From Escherichia phage vB_EcoM_4HA13: a DNA stretch of 52,401 nt. The stretch is taken from the sequence record NC_049466.2; one strand, written 5' to 3'. The notes under the pieces are model-generated. The model was not told the DNA's origin. It worked only from the letters and a program-made list of their open reading frames with translations, and did no database searches. Positions 1 through 52,401 of the stretch are shown here, one piece after another. The translations under genes were made by a program, and so were the position numbers. How positions within the stretch are numbered: the stretch's first letter is position 1; each line of letters begins with the position of its first letter.

Positions 1-117
1 TTAAATACGGTCCCTACTCCAACTTTTTCTAGCCTATCGGCTTAGAACTAACACCAAGTTAGGCGCTTCGCTTATGAGTCAACGTCAACACCACTCGCTG
101 TGAGATTAGCACTGTTC

Positions 118-143
118 TGCTACATTAGTTGGAAATGATTGTG
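118..143 (+). promoter_or_regulatory. Conserved motif copy P0 (ACATTAGTTGGAAATGATTG); candidate phage promoter
   Basis: Matches the motif repeated at 2705, 6090, 10502 and 12635; lies upstream of first genes in window. Confidence 0.45.
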
Positions 144-193
144 AGAAGGCTACGCCAACTTAATCCGTTTCATAAACTACTGGAGATACAATC

Positions 194-361
194 ATGACTT
201 ACTACGATGCAGACTTAGGCTTGGTAATGTGCGAAAGCGAACTGTCCTTAGAGATAGACGCACTTGATTGGGAACACGAGCTACCTAAAGGTGAGCCACA
301 GTGGGGCGACGACGATTACGTTTATGTAGCGCCTACTGACGAATTTGATATCCCATTCTGA
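194..361 (+). CDS. Hypothetical small acidic protein (55 aa)
   Basis: ATG at 194 preceded by GGAGA; open to TGA at 359-361; below the 60-aa cutoff of the supplied ORF track. Confidence 0.35.
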   Translation: MTYYDADLGLVMCESELSLEIDALDWEHELPKGEPQWGDDDYVYVAPTDEFDIPF

Positions 362-398
362 TACTTGTCCTACTACCTGATACACAATCTGTCCTAAC

Positions 399-2363
399 TT
401 GATAAAACTGGAGCTTACAATGACTACTATCACCACTCAAACTATGAAATCTGTTGTCCCATCAATCGCTGCATTGGTATATCGTGCCAAAGAGAAACAG
501 CAATACATGGAGCCGCATACTTGTGCACTGGCTGCACTGGCTATCTTCCACATGATGACAATGTTCACTCGTGACGATGTTATCCCTGCTGTGTCAATGG
601 TTGAACTGGCAAACGCTTCAATTAAGAAGGCGAACTCCAGCAACAACGATATGAAACAATACCACTACGTTGACCCATCAATCAATCTGATTGGTCTGGC
701 TAAGCACTTTGGCTTCCTCAACATGAATGAGGATAAGTCGTTCCAACAAACTGAAGCATGGGTTGAACTGGTTACTACCAAAGATACCAGCATCCCATTC
801 ACGACTCCAGTCACTGCTGAGAATCGTCGTAAGCCTTACGTCAAAGGTGGCAAAGTTAAGCCGTCCAAGTTGTTGCGTAATACCATCAACTTCCTGCAAT
901 CAACCGAGTACCACGTAGATGGGCAAATGGTTGCAGTCATCAAGAAGATGCTCAAAATGAAACAGTTTGCTGGTGAGGTTATGCCAGTTGCTGTGAAACA
1001 AGAGGAACATGTTTGGAATGCGGCATTGAACATGGTGATTCAAGATACTCTGTTCTCTGACTACTTTGCTGACAATCGTGGTCGTTTGTATCACGTAGCT
1101 TGTGCTGGTCCTAATCCACAATCTTCTGACTTTGCTCGTTGCTTGTATTCTCACAACATTGAGAACTTCGTAAACAAGCTGAATGAAGATGGCTCAACCA
1201 CCGAAGCATACAACATGTTCATGGCTGAGCTGGATGATATCTCTGGTGGTGAGTGGAATACTCCACGCTACTTAACTCGTGTTGCTCAGAATCCTGCTGG
1301 TGCATTGGCTCAGATTCTCAACATGAGCAAAGAACAGAATCCACCTAAGAAGCCATTCACTTATGTACGTCTGGCATTAGATTGGTTCCAGTTTGAAACA
1401 ACTGGCAAGTGTGATTCTCGTGTAGGCTTTGGCTTAGATGCTAAATGTTCAGGTACTCAATACTTGGCATTCATTGCTGGCAATATGGAAATGGCTCAAG
1501 CAACTGGCTTAGTTGACAATGAGTCCAAAGCTCGTGACCCGTACCAATTATCTTTGGTGCAACTGATGAAACTGTTGGAGAAATCTAGCATGAATCCAAC
1601 TCAGGAAATCAAGGACGCATTCTTGAATCCGAAAGCTGGACGTAATTTCATCAAGACTCCATACATGGCAGTACAGTATGGTGGTGGTAAAGCAGCACTC
1701 ACTGGTAACAAGGACTTCTGCGATTATGTAGTCAACAATCTTCAAATTGACATTACTAAACTGGAAAACTTCGCTGACCTTTGTGTTGATGCAGTTCATG
1801 CAGCATTAGGTGAAAAGATTAACCTGTTTATTAATAAAGTGCAGGAAGCTGTTCAAGCTAAATGTGCTGCATTAAACAAACCATATTTCACCTACAAGCA
1901 CACTGATGGTCAGGTTGTGCACAAACCTTGCTTCCCATCTCGTGACATTTGTGAGGCATTCAGCATTCGTGTTGACTCTCAAACTCGTGTCATCTTTGGT
2001 CAGCAAATGGAGAACAAGCCTTGGACTATCCGTGAATCAAATCCAACTTGGGAAGAATTTAAACGTACTTTCGTTGTAAACTACATTCAGGGTATTGATG
2101 CACTTGTTGCACGTACTGTTGCAAAGTATGCAGAACTTGAAGGACTTCGTGGGTTCACTTCCATTCACGACTGTTTCCGTTGCTGCTTAGCTGATGCACC
2201 ACGTATGATGGATGTGATTCGTAAGGCGTATATTGAAGTATTTGTTACCAACAATCAGTTTGAGTCTTTGAGCAAACAACTTGGTGGCATTGAGATGTAT
2301 CATGAGAATATCGTAACAGAAGAACTGCTCAACTCTGAGCATGCATATTACTTCTGTCAGTAA
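399..2363 (+). CDS. Single-subunit T7-type RNA polymerase, short form (654 aa)
   Basis: DAKCSGTQY (compare T7 motif A DGSCSGIQH), YMAVQYGG (motif B), VNYIQGIDAL (compare PNFVHSQDGSHL) and IHDCF near C-terminus (compare IHDSFGT). About 230 aa shorter than T7 RNAP, so the N-terminal domain appears absent. Confidence 0.8.
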   Translation: MIKLELTMTTITTQTMKSVVPSIAALVYRAKEKQQYMEPHTCALAALAIFHMMTMFTRDDVIPAVSMVELANASIKKANSSNNDMKQYHYVDPSINLIGLAKHFGFLNMNEDKSFQQTEAWVELVTTKDTSIPFTTPVTAENRRKPYVKGGKVKPSKLLRNTINFLQSTEYHVDGQMVAVIKKMLKMKQFAGEVMPVAVKQEEHVWNAALNMVIQDTLFSDYFADNRGRLYHVACAGPNPQSSDFARCLYSHNIENFVNKLNEDGSTTEAYNMFMAELDDISGGEWNTPRYLTRVAQNPAGALAQILNMSKEQNPPKKPFTYVRLALDWFQFETTGKCDSRVGFGLDAKCSGTQYLAFIAGNMEMAQATGLVDNESKARDPYQLSLVQLMKLLEKSSMNPTQEIKDAFLNPKAGRNFIKTPYMAVQYGGGKAALTGNKDFCDYVVNNLQIDITKLENFADLCVDAVHAALGEKINLFINKVQEAVQAKCAALNKPYFTYKHTDGQVVHKPCFPSRDICEAFSIRVDSQTRVIFGQQMENKPWTIRESNPTWEEFKRTFVVNYIQGIDALVARTVAKYAELEGLRGFTSIHDCFRCCLADAPRMMDVIRKAYIEVFVTNNQFESLSKQLGGIEMYHENIVTEELLNSEHAYYFCQ

Positions 2364-2417
2364 CAACTAGTGCCAAGGATGGCGCATCAGTTGGAATAAA
2401 CTTAATAACAAAATCAA

Positions 2418-2630
2418 TTGGAGCATATAATGAACATTCAGCAAATCAAACAAATCGAAAACTGTTTCAACCCTCACCACGTTTGTAGCATGGACGACTT
2501 GTCCCGACCTACAGTTGATGAGACAAAAGACTTCTTAGAGTTGTTGGCAGAATACAAACAAGATTCGCATGTACTATTGCACGCATTCTTACACAACTCA
2601 GGATATTTTGATACAGAAATACCATTCTAA
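2418..2630 (+). CDS. Hypothetical protein
   Basis: ATG with GGAG RBS; followed directly by a terminator hairpin. Confidence 0.5.
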   Translation: MEHIMNIQQIKQIENCFNPHHVCSMDDLSRPTVDETKDFLELLAEYKQDSHVLLHAFLHNSGYFDTEIPF

Positions 2631-2634
2631 TATT

Positions 2635-2660
2635 GGGAGCTTCGGCTCCCTATTCTTGTT
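2635..2660 (+). terminator. Intrinsic terminator candidate (GGGAGC-UUCG-GCUCCC hairpin then U-rich tract)
   Basis: Perfect 6-bp stem with UUCG tetraloop followed by tattcttgtt. Confidence 0.55.
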
Positions 2661-2700
2661 CCAATTAATCTCAGAGCTGTGTTCAATATTGGAACTCAAC

Positions 2701-2723
2701 TGTGACATTAGTTGAAATTGAAG
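2701..2723 (+). promoter_or_regulatory. Conserved motif copy P1 (GACATTAGTTGAAATTGAAG)
   Basis: Same core ACATTAGTTG as the other copies; about 45 nt after the terminator. Confidence 0.45.
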
Positions 2724-2740
2724 TAACAGAATACGGAGAA

Positions 2741-3624
2741 ATATTCTGCATGTCATTTTTTATTGGTGTACAACAATATTAGCATGACAACTTGAAGCAC
2801 AGTGTGATTATGTTTGGCAACATAGAACTCCCTGAGTTTGGCCGCTCAAAGTTCCCGTCACCATGTAGAGAGTAAGAATAAGATTCGAAACTGTTGTTTC
2901 AACTAAGCATGACTCATCCCTAAAGAAGCTGGGACAGCTCATGTAGTACCCTGCTGTTTCCGAGAGTTGCAACAGGTTAAGCATGTCCAATTGTTCCAAT
3001 ATTGTCACAGTCCTATTATAAAGGCCCACCCACAAGCCGGGACTATTTAGACATGATTGGAACTTTTGGTTCATGCGATTGTAGAGAAAGTAAATTCGGT
3101 AAGAGAGCGAATACCGGACATTGTTCCGATTACAGGTATCGCCTACGCCCCGAAATTGAGCAACAAATATTGTGACAGTATTGCCTCAACAATGGCATGT
3201 GTTGCGTAGCGACAATCGTACAATATCCGCATGTAAGAATGTGCCAAACTGTTAGGGGACTAATCACCTCGAAGATACGGTGAACGTGGCAATCTAGCAT
3301 GTGGATTCGTTACGAAGATTGTGACAATAATCAGCATGTAATATTGTAACAGTATTGTGCTAACCCGCATGAATACTGGCTCTCAGCCAAGCGAAGGCTT
3401 TATCATTGCATGTAATATTGTGACAATATTGGGATTTTTAAAAGATTTATTCTTTTTATTTATTCTTTATTGTCGGTTTACAGCACTTGCTCAGCGAACT
3501 TTGAATGTGCCAAATACGTTCGAAATTGCTGTGAGTGTGGAAACCAATTAGTTATAAATGTGCATGTGATATTGTGACAATATTCTCCATTTGGCGGGGA
3601 GTGAAGTTGCAATATTGCATGTCA
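2741..3624. repeat. Array of related about 25-bp repeats built around the palindrome AATATTGT-G-ACAATATT, often preceded by GCATGT
   Basis: Copies near 2998, 3166, 3318, 3334, 3406-3433, 3560-3587 and 3609; the 3414-3430 copy is a perfect 8-1-8 inverted repeat. No credible ORF in 2631-3837. Confidence 0.6.
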
Positions 3625-3837
3625 TTCTTAGTCTAATTGCATGAAAGATAGGGCTAATTCTGTATGAATATTGGATTCAACAGGTGTCAATGTTGATACA
3701 GAATAAGCTCCAATTTATTCAACTTGATAGTTTGGCACGTATTGTGTCACATACTCCCTGATGCTTTAAGGTGGATTAAGGAACGAAAAAGCCTCCACAA
3801 CCGTCTGACGGAGTTTAATTTAAATTAGGAGTTTAAA

Positions 3838-4092
3838 ATGGCTATTGTAAAACAATGCATGTTCCAAGACCTTCTCGATGGTCAAGTATTTAAGCACAAA
3901 GACAAACGCTGGATTAAAGTTGCAGAATCCGGCGATTACAATGCTGTAAGTTTCCACAATTCAAATCTAACTTGTGATTTTGGATTATCCTGTATTGTTG
4001 AACTTGAAGTTTCGCTTGAGCCATCTGAATGGGATTTAGTTGACGATGAAGAAGTGCAACGTTCAATCGAAGGTTACAAGGAGAATTTCTAA
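3838..4092 (+). CDS. Hypothetical protein
   Basis: ATG with AGGAG RBS; first gene after the repeat region. Confidence 0.55.
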   Translation: MAIVKQCMFQDLLDGQVFKHKDKRWIKVAESGDYNAVSFHNSNLTCDFGLSCIVELEVSLEPSEWDLVDDEEVQRSIEGYKENF

Positions 4093-4331
4093 TGCGCTAT
4101 CAACTTGTTCAACTACCTGTAACTGAGTCCTTATCATCATTTGTTCTTCTGGACAATGTAACAAAGGTTTGCAAACTACGTGACCAATCAATTTACCCAG
4201 AAGATGGTGGCAAATTGGTGTGGAAGAATGCTGCTCATAACGATGCAGTATTAAACCGTGTTATGACCTATGGTGTTGTAGTTGCAGAAGCACAAGACCC
4301 GAAATTCCTTGCTGCTCATGGATTTTCATAA
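4092..4331 (+). CDS. Hypothetical protein
   Basis: Start overlaps upstream stop (translational coupling pattern). Confidence 0.5.
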   Translation: MRYQLVQLPVTESLSSFVLLDNVTKVCKLRDQSIYPEDGGKLVWKNAAHNDAVLNRVMTYGVVVAEAQDPKFLAAHGFS

Positions 4332-4528
4332 TGAAGTGGATTGTGTATTACCGAATCATTGGCGGTATTGATGCAGTTATTCGATACCGCAATCTTGCCA
4401 TTATGCAACATGACATTGAAATGGAAAAGGATAAACAATTCGACTACATTAACGCATGTACAATCTGTGATGATGGTAGTGAAGAGATTGTGTACTCTAG
4501 TGTTGAAGAAATATTAAATGCGAAGTAA
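4331..4528 (+). CDS. Hypothetical protein
   Basis: ATGA overlap with upstream gene. Confidence 0.45.
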   Translation: MKWIVYYRIIGGIDAVIRYRNLAIMQHDIEMEKDKQFDYINACTICDDGSEEIVYSSVEEILNAK

Positions 4529-4574
4529 AGACAAAACTTTCGTGGCTGGGCGTAGTGCTCATTAAGGTAAAATC

Positions 4575-4730
4575 ATGAATGATGACAATCGTTTCACCAA
4601 TCTGTTATTAGGTCAATTAGTTAATCAAGGTGTGAAGCCGAACAAGTTCGACCGTTTCTTCAATAGTTTGGTGAAATGGTTGGTCCTTGGTTTCGTTGCA
4701 TTTATGGCATTTGGAGAATTTCTGAAATGA
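4575..4730 (+). CDS. Hypothetical small membrane protein (51 aa)
   Basis: ATG at 4575; hydrophobic C-terminal segment WLVLGFVAFMAF; below ORF-track cutoff. Confidence 0.3.
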   Translation: MNDDNRFTNLLLGQLVNQGVKPNKFDRFFNSLVKWLVLGFVAFMAFGEFLK

Positions 4731-4948
4731 GTAATCTAGCAGCATTTAAGAATCTGGTTCGTCGTGCTCAAGTTAAAGCTGATAACCAGATTTGCCTGAT
4801 TGAGAATATGCCAATTACAACAAATGTTGGAATAATTCTGTATGCAGATAAGCGCATTAAAGAATTGGAAGCTACAATTCAAGCAATGCTGGAAACAGCA
4901 GAAGGTGCTGGCATTCCACGTTGTCAATTTGACGAGGATTTAAAATGA
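4727..4948 (+). CDS. Hypothetical protein
   Basis: Internal ATG at 4727 preceded by GGAGAA; the track ORF from 4676 overlaps the upstream small gene. Confidence 0.45.
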   Translation: MSNLAAFKNLVRRAQVKADNQICLIENMPITTNVGIILYADKRIKELEATIQAMLETAEGAGIPRCQFDEDLK

Positions 4949-5115
4949 TACTCCTTCGTCATATATCTGGAACCCTTTATGTGTGCACCGATGATTATTA
5001 TTTCGCGCAATATTGGAATTCTACGCAGAAGAAATGGCGAATATCTCAAATATTGCGTTCATCTTTGCAGAATAATTGTGTAAGAATTGGAAACAATTTC
5101 CTACGCAGCAAATAA
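4945..5115 (+). CDS. Hypothetical small protein (56 aa)
   Basis: ATG at 4945 with GAGGA RBS; below ORF-track cutoff. Confidence 0.3.
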   Translation: MILLRHISGTLYVCTDDYYFAQYWNSTQKKWRISQILRSSLQNNCVRIGNNFLRSK

Positions 5116-5131
5116 CAACCGGAGAATTATC

Positions 5132-5389
5132 ATGACTCGTACAGGAATGATGCTTGTTCCGCGTAGTGGTAATTCTCTTGGGGATTTCACTCCGTATAAA
5201 GTGTATACAGTATTATCAGGAACTGGTGAAGCCAATTTGTCACCAGTTGCTTTGCGTTTAGGCCACGTTGTTCACTCAGAACGTTCATGCAATGTTCGTG
5301 ATGACAAAGGAAATATCCGTTTTGTAACTTTGGACTTCTTTCGTGAATTTAGAATGAAATCAGAGTTGGGAGATTTGTTCCATGAGTGA
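5132..5389 (+). CDS. Hypothetical protein, member of a three-gene paralog set
   Basis: Start at internal ATG with GGAGAA RBS; shares a YK-[IV]-[VY]-[AT] segment with the next two genes. Confidence 0.5.
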   Translation: MTRTGMMLVPRSGNSLGDFTPYKVYTVLSGTGEANLSPVALRLGHVVHSERSCNVRDDKGNIRFVTLDFFREFRMKSELGDLFHE

Positions 5390-5451
5390 TTTAAAGACGC
5401 CAAAGTATGTAAAGAAAGTTTGGTACGATTGTCAGACAACAGGAGAGTATT

Positions 5452-5751
5452 ATGTTATTGCGTGACAAGAAGACTGGTCGTTTAAAGAAACAGCCAGCTA
5501 AAATTGGTGACAAAGTTATTGTGTTTGGTAAATATATCCGTACAGGATTGACGGCATATAAACCATACAAAATAGTTGCAACTCAGAACTCAAAGACTGA
5601 GAACCGTAAATCGTTTGGTACGGTTTACCCACTAGAGAAGTCAAATCTTAATCGTGGATTTGGTGTATTCATCATTGATAATGATGGAGACAAAGCATTC
5701 CTGTATCTTGGCGAAGATGTATTCGGCATGACAGTGGAGAAGTTAAAATGA
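5452..5751 (+). CDS. Hypothetical protein, paralog set
   Basis: AGGAG RBS; KPYKIVATQ motif resembles KTYKIVAGR in the next gene. Confidence 0.5.
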   Translation: MLLRDKKTGRLKKQPAKIGDKVIVFGKYIRTGLTAYKPYKIVATQNSKTENRKSFGTVYPLEKSNLNRGFGVFIIDNDGDKAFLYLGEDVFGMTVEKLK

Positions 5752-6050
5752 ACAAAAATTCGGTATTGAAATATGTCGGACACGATTACGTTGCTGGGCG
5801 TCGTCAAGCATTCACCAACAACAAAACGTACAAAATTGTTGCTGGCCGTGGCGATGGTGTTCCTCGTAACAATGGAACACTTGGCGCTTATATTCAATCA
5901 GCCACCAGCTGTGTTGTTATCGATGATGATAAAAAATATCGTCAGATTGAATGCAACCACAATTGGGAACTGGTCTTCGAAAGTGACGATGTAAGTTGGT
6001 ACAAGGATGAAGGTAAATCACCAATCCCAGCGTCCCGCGAGATTTGCTAA
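5748..6050 (+). CDS. Hypothetical protein, paralog set
   Basis: ATGA overlap with upstream paralog. Confidence 0.5.
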   Translation: MNKNSVLKYVGHDYVAGRRQAFTNNKTYKIVAGRGDGVPRNNGTLGAYIQSATSCVVIDDDKKYRQIECNHNWELVFESDDVSWYKDEGKSPIPASREIC

Positions 6051-6085: not shown

Positions 6086-6110
6086 TTCAACATTAGTTGG
6101 AATTGATAGG
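6086..6110 (+). promoter_or_regulatory. Conserved motif copy P2 (CAACATTAGTTGGAATTGATAGG)
   Basis: Intergenic, upstream of the gene at 6175. Confidence 0.5.
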
Positions 6111-10003: not shown

Positions 10004-10253
10004 TGCGGACTGGTTACAGCCCGGTGAAGTAATTTTCCACGAACCCCGTGGGCATTATTATGAATTACTTCATCGAACTTTAATTAAGTCTGACGTAAAA
10101 GGTGGAAGCTGGTCGAAAGGCTGGTGCTACCAAGAAGTGAAATCGGTGGAAGTGTTGAAGAATTGTATTCGACATGAACCACCAGCGGGAGAAGTTTATT
10201 CCCGACCGAACGAATTGTTCGACGAAGATTGGCGACTTGTTACTCCAGTGTAG
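9972..10253 (+). CDS. Hypothetical protein
   Basis: In-frame ATGs overlapping the end of the upstream gene; start uncertain. Confidence 0.35.
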   Translation: MDMYSMQRIFSADWLQPGEVIFHEPRGHYYELLHRTLIKSDVKGGSWSKGWCYQEVKSVEVLKNCIRHEPPAGEVYSRPNELFDEDWRLVTPV

Positions 10254-10383
10254 TTCCAAGCTGGAACCTTGATGTTCCAAGCGGGTTTGTAACTCGTTTG
10301 GGACTTCTTCTGACCCTTCGGCATTAGTAGGAAGTGCATCGGAGAAGTTTCCAAATCAATTAAAGCCACAACTGCATTATACA

Positions 10384-10500
10384 GAATGTGTCAAAATTCT
10401 GTCAAGAAATATTCCAAATATTCCACGCCAAAGGAATAGCGGAATAATAAATAATTTATTCTAATTATTATTAAATTTTGGAATATTGGAATAATATTGA
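10384..10500. repeat. AT-rich iteron-like cluster (AATATTCCA / TGGAATA units)
   Basis: Tandem and inverted copies of AATATTCCA directly upstream of motif copy P3. Confidence 0.5.
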
Positions 10501-10520
10501 AACATTAGTTGGAAGAAAGA
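10498..10520 (+). promoter_or_regulatory. Conserved motif copy P3 (GAAACATTAGTTGGAAGAAAG)
   Basis: Intergenic; followed by a long hairpin. Confidence 0.5.
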
Positions 10521-10526
10521 AACAAC

Positions 10527-10614
10527 ATCTTGAAGCATTCTTGTAACTTGGTAGTCCGTCCGGCGCCGTGACGTGTGAGAATGTTCGAATCATTCTACAA
10601 GAGTGCTTCAAGAT
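10527..10614 (+). ncRNA. Long imperfect hairpin with tRNA T-arm-like apex (GAATG-TTCGAAT-CATTC); candidate RNase III site or tRNA-like element
   Basis: 19-bp inverted repeat 10527-10545 / 10596-10614 with one mismatch; apical 5-bp stem with 7-nt loop TTCGAAT. Confidence 0.4.
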
Positions 10615-11627: not shown

Positions 11628-11932
11628 AACGCAAAACTTTGAAACAAAAGCTCCGTGCACAGGTTCGTAAAACAAACGAACTTCGTAAGCAGGAGCATGA
11701 ACAAGCCGGAATTACAATCAACTTTGAACTTGCAGCAATGCAGTCAGTTGGTATGGCTCACGGCATCATGGCTACAATGATTCATGCCAAGAATCTGTTG
11801 GGCGAAAATGATTCTAAATATCACGAAATTCGTGACACGGCGCAGGAACGTATTGCACAGTGCGTTGTAGCATTAGTTGGAATGGGTATTCCTGCTGATG
11901 TAGTTAATCAGCGTATTGTGCAAGGTCATTAA
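11588..11932 (+). CDS. Hypothetical protein (start uncertain, GTG)
   Basis: Open frame overlapping upstream gene end; contains an internal promoter-motif-like copy at 11871-11883. Confidence 0.35.
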   Translation: MDYQTGSLRSSILKRKTLKQKLRAQVRKTNELRKQEHEQAGITINFELAAMQSVGMAHGIMATMIHAKNLLGENDSKYHEIRDTAQERIAQCVVALVGMGIPADVVNQRIVQGH

Positions 11933-12631: not shown

Positions 12632-12654
12632 GAAACATTAGTTGGAATTGATTC
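12632..12654 (+). promoter_or_regulatory. Conserved motif copy P4 (GAAACATTAGTTGGAATTGATTC)
   Basis: Best match to the consensus; intergenic, upstream of the acidic gene. Confidence 0.5.
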
Positions 12655-13471: not shown

Positions 13472-13903
13472 ATGAACAAGTTAACAGCCTATAACATTGC
13501 AAAGTTGAGGTCTGAAATAAATTGGACTGTAGACAAAGATGGCTACAGGTGTGCTACTGTAAATGGGTACACAGTCAGGAGGCATATATTAAACTTTTAC
13601 ATAAAGTTTGGTTGGCTGCCTGAATATGTAGACCATATTGACAATACTCCAGGAAATGATTGGCCTGAAAACTTAAGAGCAGCAACCGCATCACAAAATG
13701 CCTGCAACTCTAAAATAAGGTCAGATAACACTAGCGGTGTTAAAGGAGTATCTTGGGATTCCTCAAGAAACAGATGGAGAGCAAGAGTAAAGGTCAATGG
13801 CCAAACTCAATCAGTGGGAAGATTTGAGACAATCGAAGAAGCCACAGAAGCTATCCATTCTGCAAGAAAGGTTCTACACAAACATTTTGCCCGCTGTGAT
13901 TAA
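13472..13903 (+). CDS. Free-standing HNH homing endonuclease with AP2-like DNA-binding domain
   Basis: HNH core VDHIDNTPGNDWPENL...SQNACN; AP2-like GVKGVSWDSSRNRWRARVKVNG; codon usage is AT-rich compared with neighbours. Confidence 0.65.
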   Translation: MNKLTAYNIAKLRSEINWTVDKDGYRCATVNGYTVRRHILNFYIKFGWLPEYVDHIDNTPGNDWPENLRAATASQNACNSKIRSDNTSGVKGVSWDSSRNRWRARVKVNGQTQSVGRFETIEEATEAIHSARKVLHKHFARCD

Positions 13904-21493: not shown

Positions 21494-21747
21494 TGGCACA
21501 GAAAGTTTTTGCGTTTTATGACGTGCAAGAAAACCGCCTACATATGTTTGTAGCAAATGCTGAACAAGCTGAAAATGATGCTGTAAACCAATTTATCGCA
21601 GCAAATGTAGATGAATTCTTTACTACTTCAAATCTGGAACAGGCTGAGAAATTGCAGTCTGTTATTTCTGAAACAACCTCCACCGACGAGCTGAAATCAG
21701 CATTAGTTGGATGGGACTTCCAACTTGAAATGATTCAAGTGGATTAA
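21493..21747 (+). CDS. Hypothetical acidic protein
   Basis: ATGA overlap with polymerase end; contains a promoter-motif-like copy at 21701-21711. Confidence 0.45.
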   Translation: MAQKVFAFYDVQENRLHMFVANAEQAENDAVNQFIAANVDEFFTTSNLEQAEKLQSVISETTSTDELKSALVGWDFQLEMIQVD

Positions 21748-22637: not shown

Positions 22638-22644
22638 TTAAGTT

Positions 22645-22670
22645 GGCTCCTTCGGGAGCCCATTTTGTAT
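22645..22670 (+). terminator. Intrinsic terminator candidate (GGCUCC-UUCG-GGAGCC then U-rich tract)
   Basis: Perfect 6-bp stem, UUCG tetraloop, followed by cattttgtat. Confidence 0.55.
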
Positions 22671-22757
22671 AAATAGGAACGAATATGAACAAATACACCC
22701 ATCATACAAACCAACACTTTTCACCGTTTCCAAAACTAGCTCATCCTTGAGGTAAAC

Positions 22758-23306
22758 ATGTCAGAACTTAAACAGTACCAAAGCCATAAACTGGTGTGGG
22801 CAGCACCGATGACTCTAGGTGAGTTCAAAGAACACGCCAATAAACCAGATCTAATTGGTGACCAAGGCAGTGAAGGCTATCTGGTGGTGTACTCCAAAGA
22901 CACCCCGGAAGAGTATCACTCCTGGTCACCGAAAGGTGTGTTCGATGCCGGTAATACCGAAGTCGAACCATATCTGGTAGAGCTTATCAGCCGTGCTGCA
23001 CACTCTGCTAATCGTGGTTACTGCCAGTCGCTGGGTGACTTCTCTCAAGTTTCCTGGGACGAAGCACCGGAATGGCAGAAAGAGTCTGCCCGTGCTGGCG
23101 TCCGTTTCCATCTGGCAAACGACGTTACCCCGGAGCAATCCCACGAAAGCTGGCTGGCTGCTAAAGAAGCCGATGGCTGGAAGTATGGCCCGGTCAAAGA
23201 CGCAGAGAAGAAAGAGCATCCTTGCTTCCTGCCTTATGCCGACCTACCAGCCTATCAGAAAGCGAAAGATTTTATCTTTAAGTCTGTCGTAGACGGCTTT
23301 AAGTAA
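22758..23306 (+). CDS. RyR-domain-like protein (tentative)
   Basis: C-terminal GWKYGPVKDAEKKEHPCFLPYADLPAYQKAKD resembles the RyR repeat consensus. Confidence 0.45.
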   Translation: MSELKQYQSHKLVWAAPMTLGEFKEHANKPDLIGDQGSEGYLVVYSKDTPEEYHSWSPKGVFDAGNTEVEPYLVELISRAAHSANRGYCQSLGDFSQVSWDEAPEWQKESARAGVRFHLANDVTPEQSHESWLAAKEADGWKYGPVKDAEKKEHPCFLPYADLPAYQKAKDFIFKSVVDGFK

Positions 23307-27728: not shown

Positions 27729-27908
27729 ATGCGTACTATCACTTGTAATCACTGTGGGCATGAAATTGCAGAAGATGATTTCATTGTTCAGCAATGCCCA
27801 ATCTGTGACTCTTACATGGAAGTCAATCGTTTAAATCTTAAAGTAGATTCCGAACTTGGCACCATCATTCGTGTCAATCCTGTGCACACCTCTACATTAG
27901 TAGAATAA
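27729..27908 (+). CDS. Small zinc-ribbon protein (59 aa)
   Basis: GGAG RBS; CNHC...CPIC; below ORF-track cutoff; its 3' end holds a degenerate promoter-motif copy. Confidence 0.4.
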   Translation: MRTITCNHCGHEIAEDDFIVQQCPICDSYMEVNRLNLKVDSELGTIIRVNPVHTSTLVE

Positions 27909-42328: not shown

Positions 42329-42370
42329 AATATTAGTTGAACGTGTATTAATTTCAATAGGTATATCGCA

Positions 42371-51802: not shown

Positions 51803-52210
51803 ACGGGTTGACAAAGAATATGTGGAAGGAAGTTGGCTTCTTTACCACTGTAATAGGCCTACTGATTGCCCTAACTTATCTGTAATTTTCGCCAATAAGT
51901 TGCGAGAAATGAGTGGATTTCGTTAGAAATACATCCATTTTGAAGCAGAAATTTATAGAATTCCCTATAAAATAAGTCAAAATATTCTCAATATTGTAGC
52001 AATATTAGGAGTATAAATGGCTTATTCTAGAGGAAATTTAAGCCGAAAAGCTTACTCACTACGTTCGTTTAATCGCTTCTCGCCGTCTTTAAGGTCAAGG
52101 GCATGCTGTAAACTTCTTAATATTTAGCTAATATCGGTTGACTGTTGCTACAATATTTATCTACATAGTCGGTCAACTGTACCAAATTTATTTCAATTTG
52201 AGGGTGGAAT

Positions 52211-52315
52211 ATGAAACCAAATTATGTGGCCATTCGAAAAAGCAAGGAAGCAATGTTTCACAGATTTATAGAAGCAAAGAGGAAGGCGGAATTGGAAGGC
52301 AAGGTTGTAATTTAA
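52211..52315 (+). CDS. Hypothetical small basic protein (34 aa)
   Basis: ATG with GAGGGTGG RBS in the terminal non-coding region; too short to be confident. Confidence 0.25.
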   Translation: MKPNYVAIRKSKEAMFHRFIEAKRKAELEGKVVI

Positions 52316-52401
52316 GTCGGTAAGCGATTCGATTGTTGTGCCAATATTTAAATTTATTTTTTCGGGCAAGCGAGGAGGGAGTGTCCAACGTCCTATCGGA
52401 C

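Follow-up and report, generated by a model that had tools for sequence, protein, structure and literature searches.

At the left end of phage T7, an array of short repeats lies at the terminal repeat, together with tandem promoters (phiOL and A1-A3) and, ahead of the first gene, an RNase III site; T7 replication origins combine a promoter with AT-rich DNA. Promoters of the T7 type are asymmetric, span about 20 bp and are flanked by AT-rich sequence, a G following the AT block. In phage T5, a 1.2-kb untranslated segment, Repeat Region 3, lies mostly within the terminal repeat and overruns into unique DNA, and the order of its repeats is conserved (bioRxiv 10.1101/866236). The family Chaseviridae, which is strictly lytic, is characterized by terminal repeats of ∼3 kb and a T7-like polymerase, with promoters described as still unidentified (ICTV profile 2022). 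Here we analyze a non-coding gap of 1,207 bp (2631-3837) in Escherichia phage vB_EcoM_4HA13 (NC_049466.2), whose sequence of 52,401 bp, the window of this study, is the complete genome of a Chaseviridae (Cleopatravirinae) myophage (IMG/VR UViG_2974699376_000001). The gap carries repeated copies of a directional box that begins with GCATGT.

The gap is a real, strongly non-random and family-wide cis element, best filed with the control regions of terminal-repeat junctions; none of the systems with which we compared it (T5, T7, operator arrays and iterons) is fully matched. Like T5 Repeat Region 3, it is located at the inner end of the repeat and downstream of the first-expressed genes, overruns into unique DNA, and keeps its order in diverging relatives. 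It differs in having no sequence similarity to the T5 region, no DnaA boxes, and a single directional box where T5 has many unrelated repeat families; moreover, the chasevirus repeat is 3 kb long and contains the RNA polymerase gene, whereas that of T5 spans 10 kb, and two-step injection, a T5 trait, is not known to occur in chaseviruses. Like T7, the phage has a single-subunit RNA polymerase and, beside the terminal repeat, a non-coding region whose repeated signals all point the same way, into the genome; its first early gene follows a structured RNA site, and an AT-rich tract follows a promoter-like box. However, the T7 polymerase gene lies downstream of its promoters, while the chasevirus gene lies upstream, inside the repeat, and the tandem promoters of T7 are of the host sigma-70 type, which is undetectable in the gap of the window, where the boxes also do not match the dispersed promoter candidate described below. 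In the searchable literature the gap is undescribed, as are chasevirus transcripts and origin or packaging signals, an earlier mention in the phiEcoM-GJ1 or Y2 genome papers being possible.

A directional box in a non-coding gap

The gap separates gp2 (2430-2630) from gp3 (3838-4092, + strand), the first gene of the early cluster and the right border of the module, with 41% protein identity to relatives. Further upstream is the gene for the single-subunit RNA polymerase (420-2363; best identity to the compared relatives 78-83%), and the + strand carries all long open reading frames (ORFs) except two overlapping ones. The original prediction, which placed an array of palindromic operator-like repeats at 2741-3624 in a region without a credible ORF, was correct in its coordinates, and the feature reaches further, to 2631-3837. 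No credible or conserved ORF is present in this interval: the two listed ORFs, 2808-3074 on the minus strand and 3357-3551 on the plus strand, are spurious, as had been suspected, since the corresponding DNA of relatives interrupts both with stops and breaks of frame. The neighboring gp2, unlike both gap ORFs, is conserved as a protein (85-88% identity) and is missing in several relatives whose gaps keep the boxes.

The palindrome itself, AATATTGTGACAATATT, is strongly over-represented. With ≤3 mismatches it gives 16 strand-matches genome-wide, compared with 0.46 expected, and none of 100 shuffles reached 16. Five sites in the gap match on both strands (3166, 3315, 3340, the perfect 3414, and 3568), and a sixth, degenerate copy, at 2998, is matched by the minus strand alone, the + strand needing 4 mismatches; a purine occupies the + strand centre in five of these six dyads. 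The search elsewhere in the genome and in related phages, which had been proposed as a check, gave additional matches at 10482, 51990 and 52332, and related phages carry the same module. Thus the repeats are real, with six copies, and the count of at least seven holds only if the half-sites AATATTG/CAATATT (2685, 2775, 3611 and 3667) are included. That the repeats are often preceded by GCATGT was right and, if anything, understated: within 2631-3837, GCATGT occurs nine times on the + strand and never on the minus strand, and GCATG occurs 13 times and once, respectively, where ∼1.7 are expected (a first-order Markov count scaled to 1207 nt). The GCATG sites elsewhere in the genome have no downstream box and look random.

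This strand bias is a property of the family. In every relative examined, the polymerase block is followed by a gap of ∼1.0-1.4 kb, and in ten Cleopatravirinae gaps, from phages of Escherichia, Yersinia, Erwinia, Pectobacterium, Proteus and Aeromonas, GCATG is found 9-14 times on the + strand and 0-1 times on the minus strand. Alignments of 6 and of 15 genomes show the same boxes, in the same order, at corresponding positions amid other conserved blocks. The consensus of 71 units aligned on GCATG consists of an AT-rich upstream segment, GCATGT, nAAnTTG and nnACAA; 44 of the 71 units have G at position +12. On the coding strand the composite box reads GCATGT-N4/5-TTGTGACA, the gap between GCATGT and (T)TGTGACA being 4-5 nt.

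At orthologous dyads, the arms decay without compensation (the right arm in GJ1, EcpYSF, phiA050, Myduc and PP101, the left arm in Y2), while TTGTGAC is invariant. At the 3166 site, the left arm and centre are kept in all genomes and the right arm decays in most; at 3414, the arms are lost in Myduc, PP101 and Y2. The Myduc gap contains 14 GCATG and 5 TGTGACA but only 2 AATATT. We conclude from these alignments that the selected feature is the directional composite box, of which the dyad is not the defining part, and that the palindrome is in all likelihood a local by-product, in which self-complementary AATATT on both sides of a GTGAC core creates a 17-bp dyad. Because the element is strand-specific in ten genomes, a symmetric dimer site is disfavored. 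What survives of the proposed operator for a dimeric DNA-binding protein is a multi-site cis element conserved beyond chance; dyad symmetry as its functional feature does not.

In more distant relatives, the box changes with the phage. ZPAH14 (Aeromonas, Shantouvirus) and VPs20 (Vibrio, Nefertitivirinae), whose polymerases are ∼33% identical to that of the window, have an equivalent gap of ∼1 kb (2617-3657 and 2158-3201, respectively) with 0-1 GCATG and 0-1 AATATT, and with GTATGA seven times on the + strand and never on the minus strand. The directional repeat of these equivalent gaps is thus a different one (CATAGGTATGAGACA and GTATGA), and in ZPAH14 the gap contains all five GTATGAGAC copies of the genome. 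Phage phiA050, from the same host species as ZPAH14 (Aeromonas hydrophila), is of the GCATGT type. Because the motif tracks phage lineage and not host, the reader of the boxes is probably phage-encoded, and a host factor is unlikely because the same motif is found across six host genera and another motif in the second Aeromonas phage. We know of no convincing fit between the boxes and the sites of CRP, LexA, Fur, IHF, sigma-54 or sigma-E. In a scan of IMG/VR for GCATGTNNNNTTGTGACA, two matches occurred only in chasevirus contigs and in one 5-kb fragment, and the single matches elsewhere look like chance.

Two further observations concern the gaps of relatives. ZPAH14 has four copies of CGAGCCAAAAG in its gap, with the related GCCAAAAGA in three other intergenic regions. 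Myduc has a tandem duplication of ∼218 bp in its gap (2785-3220), which copies a GCATGT box and the conserved block TCCTATTATAAAGGCCCACCCACAAGCCGGG described below.

Promoter candidate, RNA structure and terminal-repeat end

A second sequence, TGnnRCATTAGTTGGAA (class A), has 10 strong sites in the genome, all on the + strand (122-134, 2705-2717, 6090-6102, 10321-10333, 10502-10514, 11870-11882, 12635-12647, 21700-21712, 27894-27906 and 42330-42342). ATTAGTTG occurs 12 times on the + strand and not at all on the minus strand, compared with ∼1.1 expected, and class A sites often follow a terminator and precede a start codon by 40-100 nt. From this distribution, class A is a strong candidate for a dispersed phage-polymerase promoter, a better one than the boxes. 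One copy, TGTGACATTAGTTGAAATTGAA (2701-2722, + strand), opens the module and is present at this place in 14 of 15 genomes; upstream of it, at the left border, the terminator scan found an intrinsic terminator after gp2 (2635-2650, + strand; GGGAGC-TTCG-GCTCCC followed by a T-rich tail; -12 kcal/mol, z = -3.0), which is kept in relatives. Because there is no class A site in the window between 2707 and 6092, the genes at 3838-6050 would need a start signal in the gap.

Boxes and class A sites meet at a few places. In Carltongylesvirus relatives, the last box, box 13, is fused to a class A core (CATTAGTTGCATGTGAA), and the last box before gp3 keeps GCATG even without that core in the window, PP101 and one more relative. 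Dyads that end 2-3 nt upstream of a class A site are found at 10482-10498 in the window (before 10502) and at the start of the gap in Mangalitsa, ST32, SKA49, Y2, PP101 and phiA050; most gap dyads do not adjoin a class A site.

Two other identities for the boxes were rejected. As class A variants they could not be upheld as a firm claim, with weight-matrix scores only mildly above background. As host sigma-70 promoters they were rejected because a consensus scan of 1-6000 was without enrichment (12 sites, compared with 16.3 expected, and none at boxes) and because the -35/-10 and extended -10 registers around GCATGT and TGTGACA, checked manually, are inconsistent in spacing. Upstream of the polymerase gene (1-420), the window has no recognisable sigma-70 promoter, only the class A site at 122. 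Elsewhere (22638-22700), the gene at 22758 is preceded by a terminator hairpin and then by TATAAATA, which is the T4 late promoter sequence; with only two copies on the + strand it may be chance.

Because single-sequence folding energies are unexceptional, the case for RNA structure in the gap is a comparative one, made from covariation in sets of 10-15 related genomes. When 10 genomes were folded independently, the same pair of twin hairpins, H0 and H1 (2814-2855, + strand), was obtained, with four to five different stem sequences and compensatory changes: UAUGUU/AACAUA, UACGUU/AACGUA, AAUGAU/AUCAUU and UACAG/CUGUA in H0, and CUGAG/CUCAA, UGUCU/AGACA, UAGGU/ACCUA and CUCAG/CUGAA in the inner stem of H1 (the energy of H0/H1 in the window alone is unexceptional, z = -0.9). 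A further hairpin is H2, a conserved stem-loop of 50 nt (3242-3291) with 23 pairs and the apical part GAGG-ACUAAUCA-CCUC. Across 11 genomes, 94.8% of its cells are paired, compared with 30-49% when the partners are slid, and changes on both sides occur in 10 pairs, compared with 0-3; on four of five measures, the observed values were reached by only 0-1 of 500 shuffles. The wobbles in H2 are G-U on the + strand. A small stem, AGCC..GGCU, accompanies box 9 (3367-3400, + strand), with compensatory changes in relatives that we read directly from the sequences (AGCC/GGCT, AGAGC/GCTCT, TGCTG/CAGCA and TGCTA/TAGCA); RNAalifold did not call this stem. Finally, a long hairpin followed by a T/A-rich run lies directly 5′ of the gp3 ribosome-binding site (3753-3822, + strand) and could be a terminator, an attenuator or a processing site. 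Its structure is shared by close relatives, 4 of the pairs occurring as two or more pair types; it is replaced in phiA050 and PP101 by a simple CTCCC..GGGAG hairpin with a T-run, and is weak in the window (z = -0.3).

The covariation indicates that at least part of the gap works on the + strand as RNA (single-stranded DNA being less probable), and the gap is apparently a transcribed region. We rejected the dyads as RNA hairpins, given a folding energy of only -1.5 kcal/mol and no compensatory maintenance. Departures from dyad symmetry are of the G-T type in 16 cases and of the A-C type in 7, a weak bias from non-independent sites, and 23 of the 46 non-Watson-Crick dyad positions are plain mismatches. 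In a scan of 1-6000, the covariance models of Rfam 15 gave no match at E ≤ 1, and the tRNA/tmRNA scan of the window found none.

The module also contains the end of the terminal repeat in several relatives. The first base of the window is the same as that of the Escherichia phage Mangalitsa record, the left end of its PhageTerm-predicted direct terminal repeat of 3,234 bp, and the window carries one copy only of the repeat. The repeat is 2,608 bp in the Y2 record, which has both copies, and 3,202 bp in the PhageTerm annotation of Myduc; the ends in Y2, Myduc and Mangalitsa all align to window 3110-3116. By homology, we infer that the window's own repeat is ∼3.1 kb long and ends at ∼3110-3116 (unstranded; between GAATACC and GGACATT). 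This end would put the boxes at 2748-2981 inside the repeat and five good dyads (3166-3584) just outside. In ZPAH14, a repeat of ∼3,373 bp, inferred from the record, also ends within the gap. The repeat of PYps23T was experimentally determined as 2,339 bp (PMC8762354). Its end maps to window ∼2716, inside the class A promoter at the start of the gap, and the Y2, Myduc and Mangalitsa ends lie ∼400 bp further right, at one common point. The best-conserved stretch of the module is a block of almost invariant alignment columns in 15 genomes, TCCTATTATAAAGGCCCACCCACAAGCCGGG (3011-3042, unstranded). It lies 62-76 bp upstream of the repeat end in Y2, Mangalitsa and Myduc, where the cut site itself is unconserved, and it may be a packaging recognition site.

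AATATT, the palindrome arm, has a distribution of its own. It occurs 49 times in the genome, compared with ∼21.5 expected, and clusters at three places only, with 12 copies in the gap (if that at 2629 is counted), 4 at 10.4 kb and 6 in the non-coding region of the right end. These places also contain the three 50-mers that are richest in AT genome-wide, and AATATT pairs at 11-bp spacing are found at 3414/3425, 10482/10493 and 51990/52001.

The two other regions merit a brief description. The non-coding region of ∼600 bp at 10004-10602 contains the 50-mer with the highest AT content genome-wide (10% GC, at 10443), two copies of AATATTCC with an inverted GGAATATT, and a dyad, AATATTGGAATAATATT, that ends 3 nt before a class A site. 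It is a candidate replication origin; its Mangalitsa counterpart is without the AATATT cluster. The right-end region (51927-52401, continuing into 1-60) contains six AATATT, the third most AT-rich 50-mer, and a dyad, AATATTGTAGCAATATT, directly 5′ of a ribosome-binding site, and its AATATT cluster is also found in Mangalitsa and Y2. A direct repeat, CCTATCGG, flanks the left end of the genome (52389 and 32), with CCTRTCGG in Y2 and Mangalitsa.

Candidate roles of the boxes

We tentatively favor the reading that the boxes act much as promoters do, as sites where the transcription and replication machinery of the phage is loaded, a reading that we hold to be the leading one and still short of an even chance. 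The boxes would be DNA sites of an asymmetric, phage-encoded reader, most likely the T7-like RNA polymerase of the phage or a partner factor, and would serve as auxiliary loading sites, all pointing into the genome. The module would be transcribed rightwards to give a structured non-coding RNA, and the best box (3408-3433, + strand) with the AT-rich tract that follows it would form a "promoter plus unwinding element" of the T7 type, priming replication and feeding early-gene transcription. The sequences show that the boxes exist and are directional, that the gap is non-coding and syntenic throughout the family, that the motif goes with lineage, that the hairpins covary, and where the module stands relative to the terminal repeat of relatives. 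That a protein reads the boxes, that this protein is the polymerase, that transcripts begin there, and that replication is involved are separate steps, each of which we infer. The likeness to T7-type promoters arises because the boxes are asymmetric, span ∼20 bp, lie on the gene strand and have AT-rich flanks. Together with this layout, the strand bias, the lineage-linked motif, and the GGG and AT-rich tract after the best box are consistent with the proposal, as are the terminator and promoter at the left border and the hairpin with a T-run at the right, the compensatory changes in the + strand hairpins, the lack of a class A site for the genes at 3838-6050, the retention of GCATG at the last box before gp3, the absence of sigma-70 enrichment, the absence of a recognisable helix-turn-helix (HTH) regulator among ∼30 early and middle ORFs, and the position of two hairpins: H2 starts 13 nt after the G of the GCATGT at 3229, and a hairpin at 2761 starts 13 nt after the box at 2748.

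Compared with the SP6 promoter, ATTTAGGTGACACTATAG, the 17-mer plus G agrees at 12 of 18 positions, which may be chance in AT-rich sequence. Among these positions is GTGACA, at an equal distance from a TAT-G start and in gene orientation; a difference is that the window polymerase is only ∼22% identical to podovirus polymerases.

Several observations weigh against polymerase loading at the boxes. T7-type promoters recur upstream of genes throughout a genome, and outside the gap no boxes precede genes. The boxes score poorly against a weight matrix derived from the dispersed class A sites, and it would be unusual for one single-subunit polymerase to read two such different sequences. Hairpin energies in single sequences are no better than those of shuffles, and we found no chasevirus transcript data in the searchable literature. 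The AATATT clusters at 10.4 kb and at the right end could imply a separate AATATT-binding factor, and the position of the module across the terminal-repeat end suits packaging or injection roles equally well. In a more specific form, for which we see a rather small chance, the boxes would be a second class of polymerase-loading site that fires short structured non-coding RNAs, or a T7/T5-style entry device: the repeat, with the polymerase gene, would enter first, and newly made polymerase would then engage the array, pulling in and switching on the remaining genome. Either, if true, would be a mechanism of entry and early control that is new for a contractile-tailed phage.

The position of the repeat end points to a different explanation, that the gap is a terminal-repeat junction element, whose sites either direct packaging (small or large terminase) and set where the repeat ends and is duplicated, or control entry by a T5-like injection stop that holds the DNA once the repeat with its polymerase gene has entered. 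The repeat end falls within the gap in Y2, Myduc, Mangalitsa, ZPAH14 and PYps23T, the boxes are confined to the gap, an invariant block lies 62-76 bp from an unconserved cut, and the anatomy is that of T5 Repeat Region 3 (bioRxiv 10.1101/866236). In addition, AATATT palindromes and AT-rich tracts are also found just outside the right-end repeat boundary in the window, Mangalitsa and Y2, and because they occur at both boundaries the repeat would be flanked by them on both sides in a concatemer. However, the right-end cluster is without GCATGT boxes, so that the AATATT part alone is common to both; there are no DnaA boxes in the gap, unlike in the T5 region; published repeat ends disagree (2339 bp versus ∼2600-3200 bp); and the + strand G-U-type covariation, together with the bracketing promoter and terminators, suggests transcription, which packaging does not need. 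We regard this junction role as rather unlikely. An operator array, in which a dimeric phage-encoded regulator binds the AATATT-N5-AATATT dyad and controls the gap and a few other promoters, is unlikely in our estimate. It would account for one perfect and four near-perfect 17-bp dyads, for the 11-bp AATATT pairs at three loci, and for the dyads that end 2-3 nt upstream of class A promoters, and the weakness of the dyad as an RNA hairpin (-1.5 kcal/mol) favors a role at the DNA level. The lambda OR/OL, 434 and P22 operators likewise place several 17-bp dyads within a few hundred bp, some of them by promoters, but in chaseviruses the symmetry is unconserved in orthologues (as noted, the Myduc gap has 2 AATATT), the conserved GCATGT and TTGTGAC are asymmetric and strand-specific, the family is strictly lytic, and the repressor gene was not found. 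Searches of Pfam and PHROGs with ∼30 early and middle ORFs, gp2 and gp3 among them, revealed no HTH-type, other regulator or initiator-like domain; the sole DNA-binding match is ORF 13472-13900 in the early/middle region, which combines HNH endonuclease and AP2 DNA-binding domains and resembles a homing endonuclease. A regulator of novel fold is possible despite these negatives.

The covarying hairpins raise the question of whether the element acts as RNA, that is, as a long structured leader or non-coding RNA that would start at the class A site at 2701-2722, with GCAUGU as a protein-binding, processing or closing-helix motif. The promoter at the start, the hairpin with a T-run at the end, the + strand hairpins H0, H1 and H2, and the excess of G-T over A-C deviations in the dyads (16 versus 7) fit such a role, and in the consensus fold of 3229-3302 GCAUGU pairs with GCAUGU, although these pairs are invariant and hence uninformative. 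An invariant hexamer is unlike the product of selection for pairing alone, Rfam offers no match, and the dyad hairpins are too weak, with half of their non-Watson-Crick positions plain mismatches; we therefore consider it improbable that the element acts chiefly at this level. Least probable of all in our view is an iteron-type origin, with the boxes as iterons for a phage initiator and 3434-3480 as the unwinding element. Same-orientation repeats do adjoin a segment that is among the richest in AT genome-wide, and, judged from the annotation of relatives, the phage encodes a primase-helicase and a DNA polymerase like those of T7. The box spacings, however, are irregular and without a common helical phase (34, 125, 74, 214, 34, 68, 37, 33, 41, 154, 55 and 22 bp, a range of 22-214 bp), DnaA boxes (TTWTNCACA) are absent from both strands of the gap, no initiator-like gene was recognised nearby, and a more AT-rich candidate with inverted repeats is available at 10.4 kb. 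T7-type replisomes start from a polymerase promoter and not from an initiator, which also counts against iterons. The earlier suggestion of an origin-like field is thus a possibility for 3408-3480, where the second most AT-rich 50-mer follows the best box, weakened by the irregular spacing and the lack of DnaA boxes.

Layout of the module and its significance

From left to right, on the + strand unless stated otherwise, the module is laid out as follows. After the terminator and the class A site come boxes 1 (2748, GCATGT) and 2 (2782, GCATGA), which span 2748-2787, have an AATATT before each, and are both conserved in the alignments; the hairpin-prone TATTGGTGTACAACAATA lies between them. Hairpins H0 and H1 are followed by box 3 (2907-2911), in a segment found in only some relatives, and by box 4 with the degenerate palindrome at 2998-3014 (together 2981-3014), in which the centre base is C and the core is inverted. 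Beyond the near-invariant block and ∼50 bp past the inferred repeat end is a palindrome copy, AATATTGTGACAGTATT (3166-3182), with no GCATGT before it. Box 5 (3195-3200) precedes box 6 (GCATGTAAGAATGTGCCA), which leads into H2 (3229-3296 in all), and box 7 (3297-3302) contains CAATCTGGCATGT, invariant among relatives. A compact group at 3315-3356 consists of a palindrome (3315-3331), box 8 (3334) and a second palindrome (3340-3356). Box 9 and its small stem then lead to the best box, at 3408-3433, which joins GCATGT, the perfect palindrome AATATTGTGACAATATT and GGG and is the most conserved copy family-wide, with TTGTGAC invariant and GCATGT and GGG nearly invariant.

The tract directly 3′ of the best box (3434-3480, unstranded) is AT-rich in all relatives, its sequence being unconserved, and the 50-mer from 3413 has 16% GC, the second lowest of the genome. 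Box 11 with the palindrome GATATTGTGACAATATT (3562-3584) and boxes 12 (3617, GCATGT) and 13 (3639, GCATGA), which span 3617-3643, are the last before the early genes. Between them and the long hairpin upstream of gp3 is a conserved TTTGGCAC-N7-GTGTCACAT (3731-3752), in which G.CAC and GTCACA are invariant.

The analysis yields three outputs that can be tested directly: a 1.2-kb family-wide cis module whose directional box switches with lineage (GCATGT versus GTATGA), the dispersed promoter candidate TGnnRCATTAGTTGGAA, and a repeat end mapped into the module. Should the boxes turn out to be sites of an ordinary regulator, the result would be a routine gain in annotation. The boxes also lend themselves to use as parts in orthogonal expression systems. 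Chaseviruses are used in biocontrol of E. coli, Erwinia and Pectobacterium. If the boxes load polymerase or terminase, they would provide a handle on how infection starts and how the 3-kb repeat is formed.

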